NCBI GenBank assembly: GCA_963716255.1
Contig: OY970303.1
Location: 736,001 to 800,000, forward strand
DNA from: an uncultured Gemmatimonadales bacterium
GTDB lineage: Bacteria > Gemmatimonadota > Gemmatimonadetes > Longimicrobiales > Longimicrobiaceae
Length of the DNA stretch: 64,000 nucleotides
Reading direction: 5' to 3'
This document shows positions 1,938-63,600 of this stretch, in pieces; position 1 is the stretch's first letter; each line of letters begins with the position of its first letter. The notes beneath the pieces were generated by a model. It did no database searches, had not been told where the DNA came from, and saw nothing but the letters and a program-made list of their open reading frames with translations. The position numbers were made by a program, and so were the translations under genes.

Positions 1938-1982
1938 CGGCGATTGAGGAGTGATCCCAGAAGTGATTTGTACTGCGGGGTC

Positions 1983-2136
1983 GGGCGTGCCCCCGGCTGG
2001 CGCCGGGGTCGGGCTTCGGCTCCGTAAGCGAGCAAACTACGCTCGCTAACGGAGTCGAGCCCCGGCGGAAACAGCCCCGCCGGGTCTCGCCCCTTCGGGC
2101 CGGAATCCCTCACGCGGGGCTCGCGCTGGCGTCCGC
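1983..2136 (+). repeat. Family-1 structured intergenic element, copy A (full length)
   Basis: GGGCGTGCCCCCGGCTGGCGCCGGGGTCGGGCTTCGGCTCCGT...GTCTCGCCCCTTCGGGCCGGAATCCCTCACGCGGGGCTCGCGCTGGCGTCCGC; recurs at 12648, 13701, 18359, 45916, 52649 and 60340. Confidence 0.95.
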
Positions 2137-2215
2137 GAGGGTCCCCACCCCGGCGCTGCGCGCCACCCCTCCCCCGCGAGCGAGGGAGGGGAGAACGGCA
2201 CGGAATCCCGCAGTT

Positions 2216-2274
2216 GGCCCCCTCTCCCAGAATCGGGAGAGGGTGGCGAGCCTCAAGCGAGCCGGGTGAGGGCC
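2216..2274 (+). repeat. REP/CIR-like ~59-bp double-hairpin repeat
   Basis: GGCCCCCTCTCCC-N6-GGGAGAGGGTGGCGAGCCTCAAGCGAGCCGGGTGAGGGCC; near-identical copies at 13051-13109 (+) and 60550-60604 (-). Confidence 0.85.
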
Positions 2275-12647: not shown

Positions 12648-12797
12648 GGGCGTGCCCCCGGCTGGCGCCGGGGTCGGGCTTCGGCTCCGTAACGCAGCAA
12701 ACAACGCTGCGTAACGGAGTCGAGCCCGCGCAAACAGCCGCGCGGTCTCGCCCCTTCGGGCCGGAATCCCTCACGCGGGGCTCGCGCTGGCGTCCGC
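12648..12797 (+). repeat. Family-1 structured element, copy B
   Basis: Same conserved framework as copy A with different but still paired stems. Confidence 0.95.
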
Positions 12798-13700: not shown

Positions 13701-13829
13701 GCGTGAGGGATTCCGGCCCGAAGGGGCGAGACCCGCGGGCAGTTTCGCGGGGCTCGACTCCGTTGCAGACGGTCGTTTCGTCTGCTACGGAGCCGAAGCC
13801 CGACCCCGGCGCCCGCCGGGGGCACGCCC
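13701..13829 (-). repeat. Family-1 structured element, copy D (lacks the distal tail)
   Basis: Reverse complement of the family-1 consensus, beginning about 20 bp after the dnaG stop. Confidence 0.95.
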
Positions 13830-15714: not shown

Positions 15715-15842
15715 GCTACGAATCGCGCCTGCGGCGGGTCACGCGCGGGTCAATTAAAACCCGAACAAAAACCGAATACAACCCGAAGATAACGAGTTTC
15801 ACGTTTCTGCGCGAGAGGGGAGCGGGTCGGTCCACACAGGAC

Positions 15843-18242
15843 TCACGCGAACTCCACCACCGTCACGCCCGTCCCGCCCTCGAAGTGCTCGCCGGGGCGG
15901 GCGACGGTGATGCGCCGGTCTTGCTTGAGCAGCTCCTGCACGCGCTCCCGCAGCGCCCCGGTCCCCTTGCCGTGGATGATGCGGAACGAAGGGAGCCCGG
16001 CCAGGATCGCGTCGTCCAGCGCCTTGCCCAGGCGCATCTCCAGCTCGTCCACGCGCAGGCCGCGCAGGTCCACCTCGGGGTGCGCTTCGCCCGCGCCGGA
16101 GGCGTAGCCGCCGCCCCAGCCGGTGCTCTGCCTGCGGGGCTCCTGGTCGCCCGCGGGGAGCACCGACAGGTCGTCGCGCGGCAGCAGCATGCGCAGCGAC
16201 CCGGCCTCCACCATGGCCTTGCCGTCGCGCACCTCCACCACCGTGCCCGTGCGCCCCAGCGACTCGATGCGTACCCGCGTCCCCGCCTCCAGCACCAGCT
16301 CGCGCCGGGGCCCGCCTCCCCCGCCGCCGCCCGTCCGCGCGCCGCGCCTGGGCTCGCGCGGGATGCGCTCCTTCTGGCGCGTGGCCTCCTCCTCCACGCG
16401 CCGCCGGGCCGCCCGCGCGGCGTCGTCCAGGCGGTCGGCGTCCGCGGCCTCGCGCAGCTCGCGGATCGCCGCCTCCACCTCCGCGCGCGACTGGAGCAGC
16501 AGGTCGCGCGCCTGCTGCCGGGCGCGCCGCTCCGCGTCCTTTTCGCGGCGCGCCAGCTCCCGCACCCGCTCCTCCAGCTCCGCCTTCAGCGCCTCCGTCT
16601 CCCGCAGCCGCGCCTCCGCGCGCAGCGTCTCCGAGGCCAGCCGCTGCTCCTTCGCCTCCAGGTCCAGGAGCAGCTTCGCCACGTCGCGCTCGCCCTGCGG
16701 CAGCGCCGCCTCCGCGCGCTCCAGCACCGCCTCCGGGAGCCCCAGCCGCCGCGCGATCGCCAGGCCGTACGAGCGGCCCGGGAGCCCCTTCACCAGGCGG
16801 TAGGTGGGCTGTAGGCGCTCCGCGTCGAACTGGAGCGAGGCGTTGACGATGCCGCGCTCGTCCGTCGCCAGCAGCTTGAGCGACCCCAGGTGCGTGGTCG
16901 CCACGGTGAACGCCGAGCGGCGCGTGAGCTCCACCAGGATGGACGCCGCCAGCGCGCCGCCCTCCACGGGGTCCGTGCCGCTGCCGATCTCGTCCGTGAG
17001 CACCAGCGACTCCCAGCCCGCGCGGTCCAGGATCTCGCGCAGGTTCTTGAGGTGCGCCGAAAAGGTGGAGAGCGACGCCTCGATGGACTGCTCGTCGCCG
17101 ATGTCCGCGAACACGTCGCGGAACACCGGCAGGCGCGACCCCTCCGCCACCGGCGGCACCACCCCGCTCTGCGCCAGCAGCGAGATCAGCCCCATCGCCT
17201 TGAGCAGCACCGTCTTGCCGCCGGTGTTGGGGCCGGAGATGAGCAGCGTGCGCTCCCCCGGGTCCATGCGCAGGTCGAAGGGGACCACCCGCTCGCCCCG
17301 GGCCAGCAGGATGGGGTGGAAGCCGCGCACCACCACGTACTCCTCCGTCCCCGCGGTGAGCACCGCGGGGATCGCCGCGTCCGCCTTGCGGGCGTAGCGC
17401 GCCCGCGCGAACACCGCGTCCAGCCGCACCAGCGCGTCCAGCGTCGCCAGCAGCTCGGGCTGCTGAGGCCGCAGGCGCACGGTGGCTTCGCGGAGGATGC
17501 GCAGCACCTCGCGGCTCTCGTTCGCCTCCAGCTCGCGCAGGCGGTTCATCATCTCCACCGCCACCGGCGGCTCCACGAACAGCGTCGCCCCCGTCCCCGA
17601 CTCGTCGTGCACGATGCCGCCCACCTCGCCGCGCCCCTCGCGGCGGATGGGGATCACGTAGCGCCCCTCGCGCACCGTCACCGAGGCGTCCTGCACCTGG
17701 TGCTGCGGCGGCAGCGAGGCCGCGAAGGCGGCCAGCCGCTCCACGATGCGCGAGCGCATTCCCTTGATCTCGCGCCGGAAGCGGTACAGCTCCGGCGACG
17801 CCCCGTCGCGCACCTCGCCGTGCTCGTCCAGGATGCGCTCGATCTCCGCCTCCTCCTTTTCCAGCTGGAGCAGCGTGCCGGCCAGGAAGCCCAGCGTGGG
17901 GAACGCCGCCGCCGCGGGCAGCACCGAGCGCCGCACCACGCGCGACGACGCCAGCAGCGTCCCCACGTCGCGGAGCGCCCGCCCGTCCAGCACGCTCCCC
18001 TCGATGCGCAGCTTCTTCAGCGGCTCGCGCACCTCCGGGATGGGCGGCACCGCCCACCCCTCGTCGCGCAGCAGGAAGCGCATCATCTCCCCCACCGTCG
18101 CCAGCTCGCCCGTGATCCACCCCGCGTCGTGCGAGGGGCGCAGGGCGCGCACCGCCTCCGCTCCCAGCGCGGAGGTGGCGTGGCGTGCGACGATGTCCAG
18201 GGCTTCCCCGTATTCGAGGACGTTCAGGGCGTGCGAGTTCAT
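15843..18242 (-). CDS. mutS2: Endonuclease MutS2
   Basis: GPNTGGKT Walker A, DIGDEQSIEASLSTFS and DEIGSGTDP; C-terminal Smr domain (DLRG...IHGKGTG). Confidence 0.96.
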   Translation of the reverse strand: MNSHALNVLEYGEALDIVARHATSALGAEAVRALRPSHDAGWITGELATVGEMMRFLLRDEGWAVPPIPEVREPLKKLRIEGSVLDGRALRDVGTLLASSRVVRRSVLPAAAAFPTLGFLAGTLLQLEKEEAEIERILDEHGEVRDGASPELYRFRREIKGMRSRIVERLAAFAASLPPQHQVQDASVTVREGRYVIPIRREGRGEVGGIVHDESGTGATLFVEPPVAVEMMNRLRELEANESREVLRILREATVRLRPQQPELLATLDALVRLDAVFARARYARKADAAIPAVLTAGTEEYVVVRGFHPILLARGERVVPFDLRMDPGERTLLISGPNTGGKTVLLKAMGLISLLAQSGVVPPVAEGSRLPVFRDVFADIGDEQSIEASLSTFSAHLKNLREILDRAGWESLVLTDEIGSGTDPVEGGALAASILVELTRRSAFTVATTHLGSLKLLATDERGIVNASLQFDAERLQPTYRLVKGLPGRSYGLAIARRLGLPEAVLERAEAALPQGERDVAKLLLDLEAKEQRLASETLRAEARLRETEALKAELEERVRELARREKDAERRARQQARDLLLQSRAEVEAAIRELREAADADRLDDAARAARRRVEEEATRQKERIPREPRRGARTGGGGGGGPRRELVLEAGTRVRIESLGRTGTVVEVRDGKAMVEAGSLRMLLPRDDLSVLPAGDQEPRRQSTGWGGGYASGAGEAHPEVDLRGLRVDELEMRLGKALDDAILAGLPSFRIIHGKGTGALRERVQELLKQDRRITVARPGEHFEGGTGVTVVEFA

Positions 18243-18358: not shown

Positions 18359-18506
18359 GGGCGTGCCCCCGCTGGCGCGGGGTCGGGCTTCGGCTCCGTA
18401 GGCGAGCAAACAACGCTCGCCAACGGAGTCGAGCCCCGGCAAACTGCCGCCGGGTCTCGCCCCTTCGGGCCGAAATCCCTCACGCGGGGCTCGCGCTGGC
18501 GTCCGC
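18359..18506 (+). repeat. Family-1 structured element, copy C
   Basis: Consensus match; the first hairpin has one base pair deleted from both strands. Confidence 0.95.
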
Positions 18507-26584: not shown

Positions 26585-26634
26585 GTATGGGGTCTGCGGC
26601 GGGGTTTTCGTTGATGGATTCGGGTCTTGAGCGT

Positions 26635-26768
26635 GGGGCCGCTCCGGAACCAGGCCAAACTGCCGGCCTGTTTCCTACGCGGGTCGCGAAGCCAGCCGAA
26701 ACTGCCCGGCTGTCTCCGCTCCGGCTGCGGGAGCCCCCCGGAAACTGCCCCGGGGGTCTCCCTCCGCA
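26635..26768 (+). repeat. Family-2 element, three hairpin modules
   Basis: GGGGCCGCTCCG followed by three GARCC-stem-AAACTGCC-stem'-GTYTCC modules. Confidence 0.92.
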
Positions 26769-26926
26769 CAAGGGGTGGGGAACGGCGGGGACGGCAAACT
26801 GCACGGCCGTCCACCCCCGCTGTCACCTTTCACGCCGCCGGCGACCCGGGCCACCGGAACGACGAAGCCCTCCCCCGGTGGCGGAGGAGGGCCGTATTTG
26901 CAGGCTGTTCCCTGTTCCCTGCCGTT

Positions 26927-28220: not shown

Positions 28221-28351
28221 TGCGGAGGGAGACCCGCCGGCTGTTTGGCGGGGCTCCCGCAGCCGGAGCGGAGACAGCGGGGCCGTTTCCGCTGGCTCCG
28301 CGACCCGCGCAGGAGACGGACGGCAGTATCGTCCGGCTCCGGAGCGGCCCC
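28221..28351 (-). repeat. Family-2 element, three hairpin modules
   Basis: Minus-strand loops ATACTGC, AAACGGCC and AAACAGCC; starts about 20 bp after the DinG stop. Confidence 0.92.
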
Positions 28352-28372
28352 AGAGCAAGATCTATCGAAAGC

Positions 28373-33373: not shown

Positions 33374-33383
33374 ATCTGTCTGG

Positions 33384-33513
33384 GGGGCCGCTCCGGAGCC
33401 GGACGATACTGCCGTCCGTCTCCTGCGCGGGCTGCGGGAGCCAGCCGAAACTGCCCGGCTGTCTCCCTTCGCACGGAGGGAACCCCGCCAAACAACCGGC
33501 GGGTTTCCCTCCG
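33384..33513 (+). repeat. Family-2 element, three hairpin modules
   Basis: Loops ATACTGC, AAACTGCC and AAACAACC; starts about 10 bp after the stop at 33373. Confidence 0.92.
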
Positions 33514-42423: not shown

Positions 42424-42471
42424 GCGAGGACGCCCACGCAAGCCCCGCGTGAGGGATTCCGGCCCGAAGGG
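42424..42471 (-). repeat. Family-1 element, 3' fragment (copy H)
   Basis: GCCCCGCGTGAGGGATTCCGGCCCGAAGGG plus a degenerate tail, abutting the IS5 remnant. Confidence 0.8.
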
Positions 42472-42634
42472 CTTCAAGGTTCTGCCCCGGCGCTGGGTAG
42501 TCGAACGCACCTTTGCGTGGCCGATGAAGTACCGGCGCCTGCGTGCCGACTACGAGAACACGGTGAGTTCCTCACGCGCATGGATCCTGCTCGCCATGAC
42601 CAGCCTCATGGCTCGTCGCCTCCGGCCCGCGTGA
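42470..42634 (+). mobile_element. IS5-family transposase C-terminal remnant
   Basis: [17 protein letters not shown]...YRRLRADYE...AWILLAM is the typical IS5 C-terminal signature; no N-terminal part present. Confidence 0.85.
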
Positions 42635-45915: not shown

Positions 45916-46046
45916 GCGTGAGGGATTTCGGCCCGAAGGGGCGAGACCCCGCGGGCAGTTTCGCGGGGGCTCGACTCCGTTGCAGACGGTAGTATCGTTT
46001 GCTACGGAGCCGAAGCCCGACCCCGGCGCCAGCCGGGGACACGCCC
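45916..46046 (-). repeat. Family-1 structured element, copy E (lacks the distal tail)
   Basis: Reverse complement of the consensus, beginning about 24 bp after the clpB stop. Confidence 0.95.
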
Positions 46047-52648: not shown

Positions 52649-52802
52649 GCGGACCCCAGCGAGACCCCCGCGTGAGGGATTTCGGCCCGAAGGGGCGAGA
52701 CCCGGCGGGGCCGTTTCCGCCGGGGCTCGACTCCGTTAGCGAGCGTTGTTTGCTCGCTTACGGAGCCGAAGCCCGACCCCGGCGCCAGCCGGGGGCACGC
52801 CC
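52649..52802 (-). repeat. Family-1 structured element, copy F
   Basis: Reverse complement of the consensus; overlaps the 3' end of the 52758-53969 CDS. Confidence 0.95.
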
Positions 52803-57704: not shown

Positions 57705-60299
<2,595 letters not shown>

Positions 60300-60339: not shown

Positions 60340-60547
60340 GGGCGTGCCCCCGGCTGGCGCCGGGGTCGGGCTTCGGCTCCGTAAGGCAGCAAACAACGCT
60401 GCCTAACGGAGGTGAGGTTTGGCGGAAACAGCCCCGCCGGGTCTCGCCCCTTCGGGCCGAAATCCCTCACGCGACAGGCCCCCTCCCCCGCAAGCGGGAG
60501 AGGGGGAGAACTTCATCGGGGACAACGTGTTTCGCGCTGGCGTCCGC
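60340..60547 (+). repeat. Family-1 element copy G, interrupted by a REP hairpin
   Basis: Consensus 60340-60473, then ~58 bp containing CCCTCCCCCGCAAGCGGGAGAGGG, then the displaced tail TCGCGCTGGCGTCCGC at 60532-60547. Confidence 0.9.
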
Positions 60548-60686: not shown

Positions 60687-60730
60687 GCGGACGCCAGCAC
60701 CCGACCCCGGCGCCAGCCGGGGGCACGCCC
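60687..60730 (-). repeat. Family-1 element, internally deleted copy (head fused to tail)
   Basis: Minus strand GGGCGTGCCCCCGGCTGGCGCCGGGGTCGGG-T-GCTGGCGTCCGC. Confidence 0.85.
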
Positions 60731-63381: not shown

Positions 63382-63600
63382 CCCCCGTCCCCGTCCGGAG
63401 TGTTCGTCCCGCCGCAGCCGGCGCCCTGCCCGTCCGCCGCCGTCGGCGCCCCACCGGCCGCGGGCGGCCTGCACGATGCGCTCCACCGCCCGGCGGAGCG
63501 GGGCCGCGACCCTGGTGTGATTCTCGCACGACACGCGCCGGGCCCGCGCCGCGCCGCGAGCCCCCGGACCGACGGCTCCGTCCCAGCCAGGGAGGTACGA

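Follow-up and report, generated by a model that had tools for sequence, protein, structure and literature searches.

The repeated element found at position 1983 of the window, a stretch of 64,000 nucleotides from a Longimicrobiaceae chromosome, is on balance likely to be a chromosomal version, further elaborated, of a small structure with seven helices that conjugative plasmids and phages carry, and to fold as single-stranded DNA (ssDNA) on the minus strand of the element. The same fold, with the same invariant positions, is found in both search directions, from the chromosomal copies to plasmids and back. Its presence on the plasmid or phage strand that is delivered single-stranded suggests that the chromosomal repeat arose from a signal of plasmids or phages, the direction from plasmid to chromosome being favoured by the breadth of the distribution rather than by a rooted tree. 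The origin and spread of bacterial intergenic repeats have so far been accounted for chiefly where a repeat has a nuclease partner (REP-RAYT, SRM-Ssn); in this case the repeat appears traceable to a structure of mobile single-stranded DNA, whose plasmid form occurs in thousands of plasmid records, including F, beside well-studied ssDNA promoters. The element is real and probably undescribed; its small counterpart, on the strand delivered single-stranded by conjugative plasmids and some phages, is apparently undescribed too.

All seven near-complete copies claimed by an earlier note on this DNA were found in the 64-kb window, with inner stems exactly as it had listed them, and its two fragments are present as a 3' tail (42447-42471-) and a 5' hairpin (approximately 60700-60730-) (Table 1). 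The strand signs of the cores in the orientation of that note (1983+, 12648+, 13701-, 18359+, 45916-, 52670-, 60340+) are opposite to the inferred folded strand. A transposase C-terminal remnant (window 42472-42600, minus strand), which, judged by a motif, may be IS5-like, abuts the element tail. Genome-wide, the ragged flank corresponding to 1938-1982 is rich in short words of the RACNGC type.

Table 1. Features of the element and its surroundings in the window; the strand of full copies is the inferred folded strand.
Feature	Position	Strand	Remarks
Element core, seven helices	1983..2115	-	alignment, covariation; earlier note wrote +
Full copy, same orientation as the 1983 copy	12648..12776	-	behind nitroreductase gene
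Full copy, opposite orientation	13701..13829	+	behind dnaG
Full copy, short P1 allele	18359..18485	-	between histidine kinase gene and mutS2
Full copy, one stem mismatch	45916..46046	+	behind ClpB-family gene
Full copy	52670..52802	+	end of GT87 gene
Copy with damaged P4 (base of the fourth hairpin broken)	60340..60472	-	behind molybdopterin oxidoreductase gene
Fragment: first hairpin only, joined to linker	60700..60730	.	faces the 60340 copy
Fragment: tail from P5 to the end	42447..42471	.	truncated by transposase remnant
Ragged flank	1938..1982	+	from stop codon of beta-lactamase-family gene (657-1937) to core
Conserved linker	2116..2137	+	behind 407/768 copies genome-wide
Two inverted family-2 units	2140..2274	.	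BoxC/TM-like hairpins as around the genome's DUF559 gene

The structure was written from an alignment of 51 copies, picked for diversity among 119. A 5-bp helix (P0) closes the ends, P1 is a hairpin, and P2, which carries a 1x1 mismatch, closes the junction of P3, P4 and P5. P3 comprises an outer stem, an A.A mismatch, a 7-bp inner stem and a 7-nt loop; P4 combines a 1x1 mismatch with a variable stem, and P5 has 3 bp and a 3-nt loop. In the alignment, 98.8% of cells pair and 17 of 42 pairs change on both sides, a value reached by 0 of 500 shuffles and overstated by related rows; none of the slid registers comes close to the covariation fold. A strict grammar parsed 654 of the 768 two-ended copies, on which the following counts rest. 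The inner stem varies while staying paired, with 4515 of 4578 cells Watson-Crick and 18 distinct perfect stems, the 7-nt loop AWACNAC is kept in 609 copies and the A-A mismatch in 618, which is the pattern that had been read from the window. A closing helix of GCGTG and CACGC had also been proposed: the multibranch fold is supported, and the helix itself, almost constant in the 51-copy alignment, shows covariation at 4 of 5 pairs in the plasmid form. With seven covarying helices in the larger alignment, it is structure rather than sequence that is conserved, in agreement with the earlier note, which had also recognised no known Rfam family; no match at the gathering score was obtained in the window, nor for the plasmid form. 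Copies from Longimicrobium span 116-184 nt and keep the scaffold, with the letters of outer P3 and of P2 changed in pairs and P4 stretched.

Within the genome, covariation does not proceed stepwise but as about 18 whole hairpin alleles that are reassorted independently. Across 707 copies, the alleles of P1, P3 and P4 are mutually independent (mutual information 0.09-0.12, against 0.07-0.09 when shuffled), the two arms of one stem are linked (2.78), and scaffold positions are linked too. The same hairpin alleles recur in two other genomes (G001 and G008), and at one orthologous site the alleles of two species differ. Taken together, the independence, the alleles common to these genomes and the differing site indicate that whole hairpins are exchanged among copies, presumably by recombination or conversion.

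The source is a soil bacterium whose genome forms one contig of 8.42 Mb with 73% G+C. It holds 791 anchored copies, 768 of them with both ends, which make up 1.2% of the genome length with a core of 133 nt. The element is present in all eight other genomes of the genus and, by covariance model, in 42 of 70 others from the family, including 28 of 37 from the sister genus, taken to be Longimicrobium; a strict sequence pattern run over 401 genomes of the phylum matched only the source genome and was too strict. By the gene calls made in this analysis, 790 of 791 copies lie outside genes, as befits a high-copy intergenic palindromic repeat. Of the copies, 287 lie in convergent gaps, 241 and 219 in co-directional gaps in sense and antisense orientation, and 43 in divergent gaps, against a background of 450 convergent, 1406 co-directional and 556 divergent gaps (2412 in total), so that divergent gaps hold few copies (43/790, compared with 556/2412 of gaps). 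There is no replichore bias (p=0.10). Close pairs of copies number 27, inverted doublets not being the rule.

Several related forms were observed alongside. Copies of the genus's own type, sometimes few, occur in genomes of other genera (G040, G058, G051, G036), through either horizontal transfer or binning error. A rare variant, with six copies in the source genome, has the same architecture with other P0, P2 and P3 letters and stands nearer the F-type plasmid form; low-copy forms like it occur in two other genera (G009, G015). A second repeat of about 180 copies, seen in the window at 26627-26775, 28223-28364 and 33382-33513, consists of three tandem P4-type modules, the module closely resembling P4 of the F-plasmid form.

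The starting clue to a link with mobile DNA was a weak blastn match to 20 Pseudomonas plasmids, then leading-region gene sets, and a compact form of the same fold, 82-97 nt long, was found in plasmid leading regions (F, R388, IncN, Pseudomonas). Two covariance models were used, R1, built from Longimicrobiaceae copies only, and R2, built from 16 plasmid hits only. On the Pseudomonas plasmid loci, R1 gave full-length matches of 88-93 nt at 35-45 bits, against at most 12.6 bits at unrelated places, and over seven plasmid loci it gave 16 full-length hits, 14 with E<=2e-4. In an alignment fitted to the model, these hits keep all helices and the P2 and P4 mismatches, P3 being a 3-bp hairpin or missing, and P0 covaries. 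In the opposite direction, R2 returned seven of seven window copies at their exact ends (E 4e-11 to 4e-7; next match 0.09), a reciprocal test that is not fully independent, since R2 was trained on hits aligned to R1. R2 also finds two copies in F (58091-58172 and 63479-63560) and two in R388, neither plasmid being in its training set. Over 46 genomes of the class it gave no match, even in one with R1 hits (G074), and because that genome was also missed, the blank shows little. By blastn, the Pseudomonas form occurs in 1585 plasmid records, 1411 of them conjugative, and the F form in 4064, of which 3098 are conjugative.

Genes of the leading region are coded by the strand that is transferred, with the relaxase gene entering last (PMC11541004). 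Judged by this rule and by gene order, from which the side of oriT was taken, all 12 copies on five plasmids (F 2, R388 2, pQNR2078 3, p58983CZ_VIM 4, p4_BGR15S 1) have their minus strand on the strand that is transferred; for R388, pQNR2078, p58983CZ_VIM and p4_BGR15S the stretch analysed showed no oriT. A conserved short motif stands behind many plasmid copies and may match the linker behind the chromosomal element. The TrwC relaxase was found in 2 of 31 family genomes, the source genome not among them.

Among known systems, the closest in setting are Frpo/ssiD (ssp1), ssp2, ssp3 and ssi of F and IncI1, which are likewise folded ssDNA of the leading region, located on the transferred strand, repeated, and placed ahead of operons (PMC9849209, PMC12672017, PMC11541004). 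In F, the plasmid motif belongs to the duplicated blocks, shared with Frpo/ssiD, that lie upstream of both ssb and the gene at 64032; it falls beyond the ssiD/Frpo sequence as published, about 100 nt past the 3' end. The motif is a compact multibranch fold, whereas Frpo is a long stem that rebuilds -35 and -10 boxes; by inspection, no such boxes occur in the element consensus or the plasmid hits. When six probe motifs were compared with the part of the Frpo/ssi table available, one match was obtained, at the tail of a predicted candidate, and none in the five known entries; half of the F motif ends this predicted Frpo-like candidate, written on the same strand. The CUP repeats of IncN resemble the plasmid form in standing at the heads of leading-region operons, and are described as a dsDNA promoter with an ArdK site (PMC5371602). 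Two IncN hits start long repeats upstream of ccgD and ccgAI; unlike CUPs, however, the IncN hits fall outside the block of about 230 bp that abuts ardB, ccgD, ardA and ccgAI, and one lies beside stbC with no block. No description of the plasmid motif was found in the literature searched, to which the original ssi, Frpo and CUP papers, which may cover it, do not belong.

Viral occurrences extend the range of the compact form. Two IMG/VR scans returned 35 and 27 contigs in overlapping sets, several contigs being near-duplicates, and neighbouring ORFs of the matches were scanned (51/71 and 43/52). A small terminase was present in nine loci, read on the element's minus strand in eight, and a large terminase in three (one of three on that strand), the compact form adjoining small-terminase genes in many environmental phage contigs. 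A copy lies in an intergenic region of one microvirus, whose Rep and capsid genes are read on the minus strand of the element; this microvirus is the single ssDNA phage among the matches, most of which are tailed-phage or plasmid-like contigs. R2 gave no match at E<=2 in G4, phiX174 and ColE1, the classic carriers of priming sites, the viral form gave none among annotated phages, and Longimicrobiaceae-type patterns were found in 0 viral contigs.

The structure could plausibly be a site at which a host factor initiates or controls synthesis of the complementary strand. A priming site would be the most likely function of so widespread a folded-ssDNA signal, and priming best suits a structure that occurs on T-strands, in a microvirus and, near terminase genes, in phage DNA. 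The main rival, which owes its standing to the stem-loop roadblock reported for ssp2 of F (10.64898/2026.01.09.698686), accepts the homology and the strand but holds that the structure acts on ssDNA between leading-region operons as a roadblock, terminator or protein dock and that the chromosomal copies are functionless passengers spread by recombination. The plasmid copies do have the end of an operon before them and the next ssDNA promoter region after them, as this would require. However, the mapped ssp2 roadblock is upstream of yfgB/ardB, where R2 has no match, and both the microvirus intergenic copy and the copies beside terminase genes suit a replication signal better than an operon insulator; we consider this rival unlikely. 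With some 800 natural variants and two covariance models defining the invariant positions, a role in the conversion of ssDNA to dsDNA after conjugation can be tested directly in F.

If the element is a priming signal, it may spread without a transposase of its own, a proposal that we advance with considerable doubt. A host protein would read the folded structure on ssDNA; a nick, made for example by DUF559 at the adjoining hairpin, would displace the minus strand, on which the family-2 hairpin is placed 5' of the element, as a nick site would be; the folded signal would then allow the displaced strand to be copied, and the new copy would be rejoined by recombination and microhomology at short words. 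Such copying and rejoining would leave ragged ends, no target duplication and shuffled hairpins. Extended to its full scope, namely a phylum-spanning seven-helix ssDNA priming signal (F, IncN, IncW and Pseudomonas plasmids, tailed phages, a microvirus) turned into a selfish chromosomal repeat that copies itself via host replication proteins without a transposase, the scenario is speculative and rather unlikely; if true, Longimicrobiaceae may have about 800 restart or gap-priming sites per chromosome.

The presence or absence of the element varies at orthologous sites. Among 142 orthologous gap pairs, 2 were filled in both genomes and 11 were scored as filled in one, one of the latter being a false pattern match in a gene; those filled in one have ragged ends, and in two cases a family-2 unit was kept with no element. 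No clean empty site was found among the orthologous gaps, and the paralogous empty sites listed gave no clean boundary; at the few empty sites between orthologues, whose divergence kept them from being clean, no target duplication appeared. The possibility of a MITE of a DDE insertion sequence was rejected, as the element has only a 5-bp closing helix, ragged flanks and, at those few sites, no target duplication.

The element is itself a target of insertion sequences. In four of four copies, an IS4 element sits in the P4 loop and duplicates it, and an IS4 relative in G006 inserts likewise at 2 of 3 visible ends. At the foot of P4, an IS481-like element (below its cut-off) was found at one position in four of four copies, and its 301-nt derivative at that same position in four of four. 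As side observations, an IS4-family element lies at 4228519 of the source genome; the IS481-like element and its non-autonomous derivative (639707-641037; 443471) share the same base in all eight copies, as a strictly site-specific IS481 would; and one IS5-like element lies in a P3 loop.

The candidate nicking enzyme is associated with the element through the family-2 hairpin, which was seen within 130 nt downstream for 316 of 768 copies and upstream for 0, against a background of 21 in 1819 gaps. Family-2 hairpins bracket the single stand-alone DUF559 gene of the source genome and its relatives in 7 of the 8 other genomes of the genus; counted by locus, DUF559 lies between them in 10 of 10 cases in the genus. 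The protein has a match to 3HRL and a weak one to the mobile-intron protein 3R3P. The gene itself (C1:125188-125565), single-copy and lying between inverted BoxC/TM-like hairpins, occupies mostly one syntenic site in the genus, and family-2 doublets with no DUF559 gene are scattered through the genome, for example at window 2140-2274. These hairpins resemble TM among the BoxC/PIT/TM repeats (PMC4666352), a likeness that belongs to the neighbour and not to the element; compared with the TMECO consensus, they match at 4 places under strict and 229 under relaxed conditions. DUF559 does not track the element in the family, where 13 genomes have DUF559 and no element and 7 the reverse; the element adjoins none of 34 DUF559 genes examined, and family 2 follows 0 of 14 Longimicrobium-type copies. 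The evidence on an enzymatic link between DUF559 and the element weighs as much against it as in its favour.

Another explanation is that of a non-autonomous element of the REP/REPIN type moved by an HUH (Y1) enzyme since lost from the genus. Like REP/BIME/REPIN with TnpA-REP (10.1101/279083), the element forms hundreds of intergenic palindromes with mosaics, few copies in divergent gaps, conserved mismatches and a role as an IS target. It differs in its seven-helix, 133-nt fold and in lacking a tnpA-REP gene, none flanked by the element having been found in the source genome. A GT[AG]G guide seems to be missing from the foot of the element, although the inner P3 stem has GTAG or GTAA in front of it, at a place where these letters take part in pairing. 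The element would work like folded leading-region ssDNA and looks like REP/BIME, yet belongs to neither by the features that define them. Y1 genes of the subclass-1.2 type are common in Longimicrobium (PF01797 in 34 of 37 genomes), and some of their inverted ends have the same AWACNRC loops. Against this, searches of the source genome with PF01797, with NF047646, with a profile built from 22 Y1 proteins of Longimicrobium and with a motif scan detected no HUH/Y1 gene; PF01797 occurs in one of the eight other genomes of the genus, as a plain IS200; the element is at none of 36 Y1 loci; and 8 of 9 element-negative Longimicrobium genomes have PF01797. The loop was rejected as a Y1 link, since it also caps DUF559-type hairpins and is therefore lineage-wide rather than specific to Y1. 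We regard this explanation as quite improbable, and of the earlier suggestion of a folded ssDNA substrate for an HUH/Y1 transposase, the folded ssDNA fits while the enzyme was not found in the source genome. The search of related genomes for copies beside RAYT, TnpA or DUF559, which the earlier note had proposed, found none at the 36 Y1 and 34 DUF559 loci. AWACNRC loops were seen to cap hairpins of unrelated repeat families across Longimicrobiaceae, and the Longimicrobium Y1 genes of subclass-1.2 type to have inverted two-hairpin ends; Y1 subclass 1.2 (Y---Q--HH) is described as generally free of terminal structures (10.1101/279083).

Other partners were also rejected. The single reverse transcriptase (RT) lies beside a small membrane-protein ORF, with the element not adjacent; this 520-aa RT (genome approximately 1015200-1017800) looks, by eye, like part of a defence module. 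Ssn-SRM is likewise a high-copy hairpin repeat read as ssDNA (PMC11893778); the source genome differs in having GIY-YIG in two long frames only, with no stand-alone small gene. No nuclease gene of any type was found bracketed by the element when protein starts were inspected by eye, and the genes bracketed by inverted copies are all ordinary. An integron attC site is a single bulged hairpin with RYYYAAC/GTTRRRY ends, accompanied by an integron integrase. The element, with its multibranch fold, was not retained as attC; the source genome has four PF00589 matches.

The element is probably not an RNA, because its orientation is unbiased and because, on the minus strand, the small loops, the wobbles and the mismatches are of DNA type. 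On the minus strand, the P5 loop reads GNA in 647 of 654 parsed copies and in 45 of 45 plasmid or viral matches, and the P1 loop has G first and A last in about 669 of 737 copies, with GNRA in only 4 of 577 tetraloops. GNA and GNNA are stable mini-hairpin loops of DNA (PMC13037366, PMC3201870). The A..C of the P3 loop on the plus strand becomes a G.T closure on the minus strand in 649 of 654 copies, and P4 behaves likewise in 591; the fixed mismatches read T.T and G.A on the minus strand. For one haplotype, the commonest, DNA energy parameters yield the covariation fold and RNA parameters do not. Against the DNA reading, stray inner-stem mismatches have no strand bias (AC 26, GT 20). A structured RNA, be it a small RNA or, on the plus strand, one that binds protein or acts as a 3'-UTR stabiliser, could account for the 528 of 791 copies that stand behind a co-directional stop codon, most of them 10-45 nt away, and for the common P5 allele, which reads c(UNCG)g on the plus strand; it is nevertheless quite improbable, given that the orientation between co-directional genes is even (sense to antisense 241:219, p=0.33), that P5 covaries as a triloop and its G-C variant (12 of 51) breaks the UNCG register, that the P1 tetraloops are not GNRA and that Rfam has no match for either form. 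The 3'-UTR RNA or ribozyme of the earlier note is not supported, in view of this lack of sense bias and of loops that are DNA-type on the opposite strand.

In four of 24 read runs, all consisting of contigs, element bins stood at about 100 times the gene bins in three DNA runs and at about 25 times in one RNA run; as contigs carry no level, strand or ends, these ratios do not count as evidence. The word AACTGC is among the most over-represented in the source genome's intergenic DNA (2.4-fold). Finally, in contigs of close strains from two sequencing runs, 222 extra letters occur at window 15819-15843, in the gap between mutS2 and dnaG.
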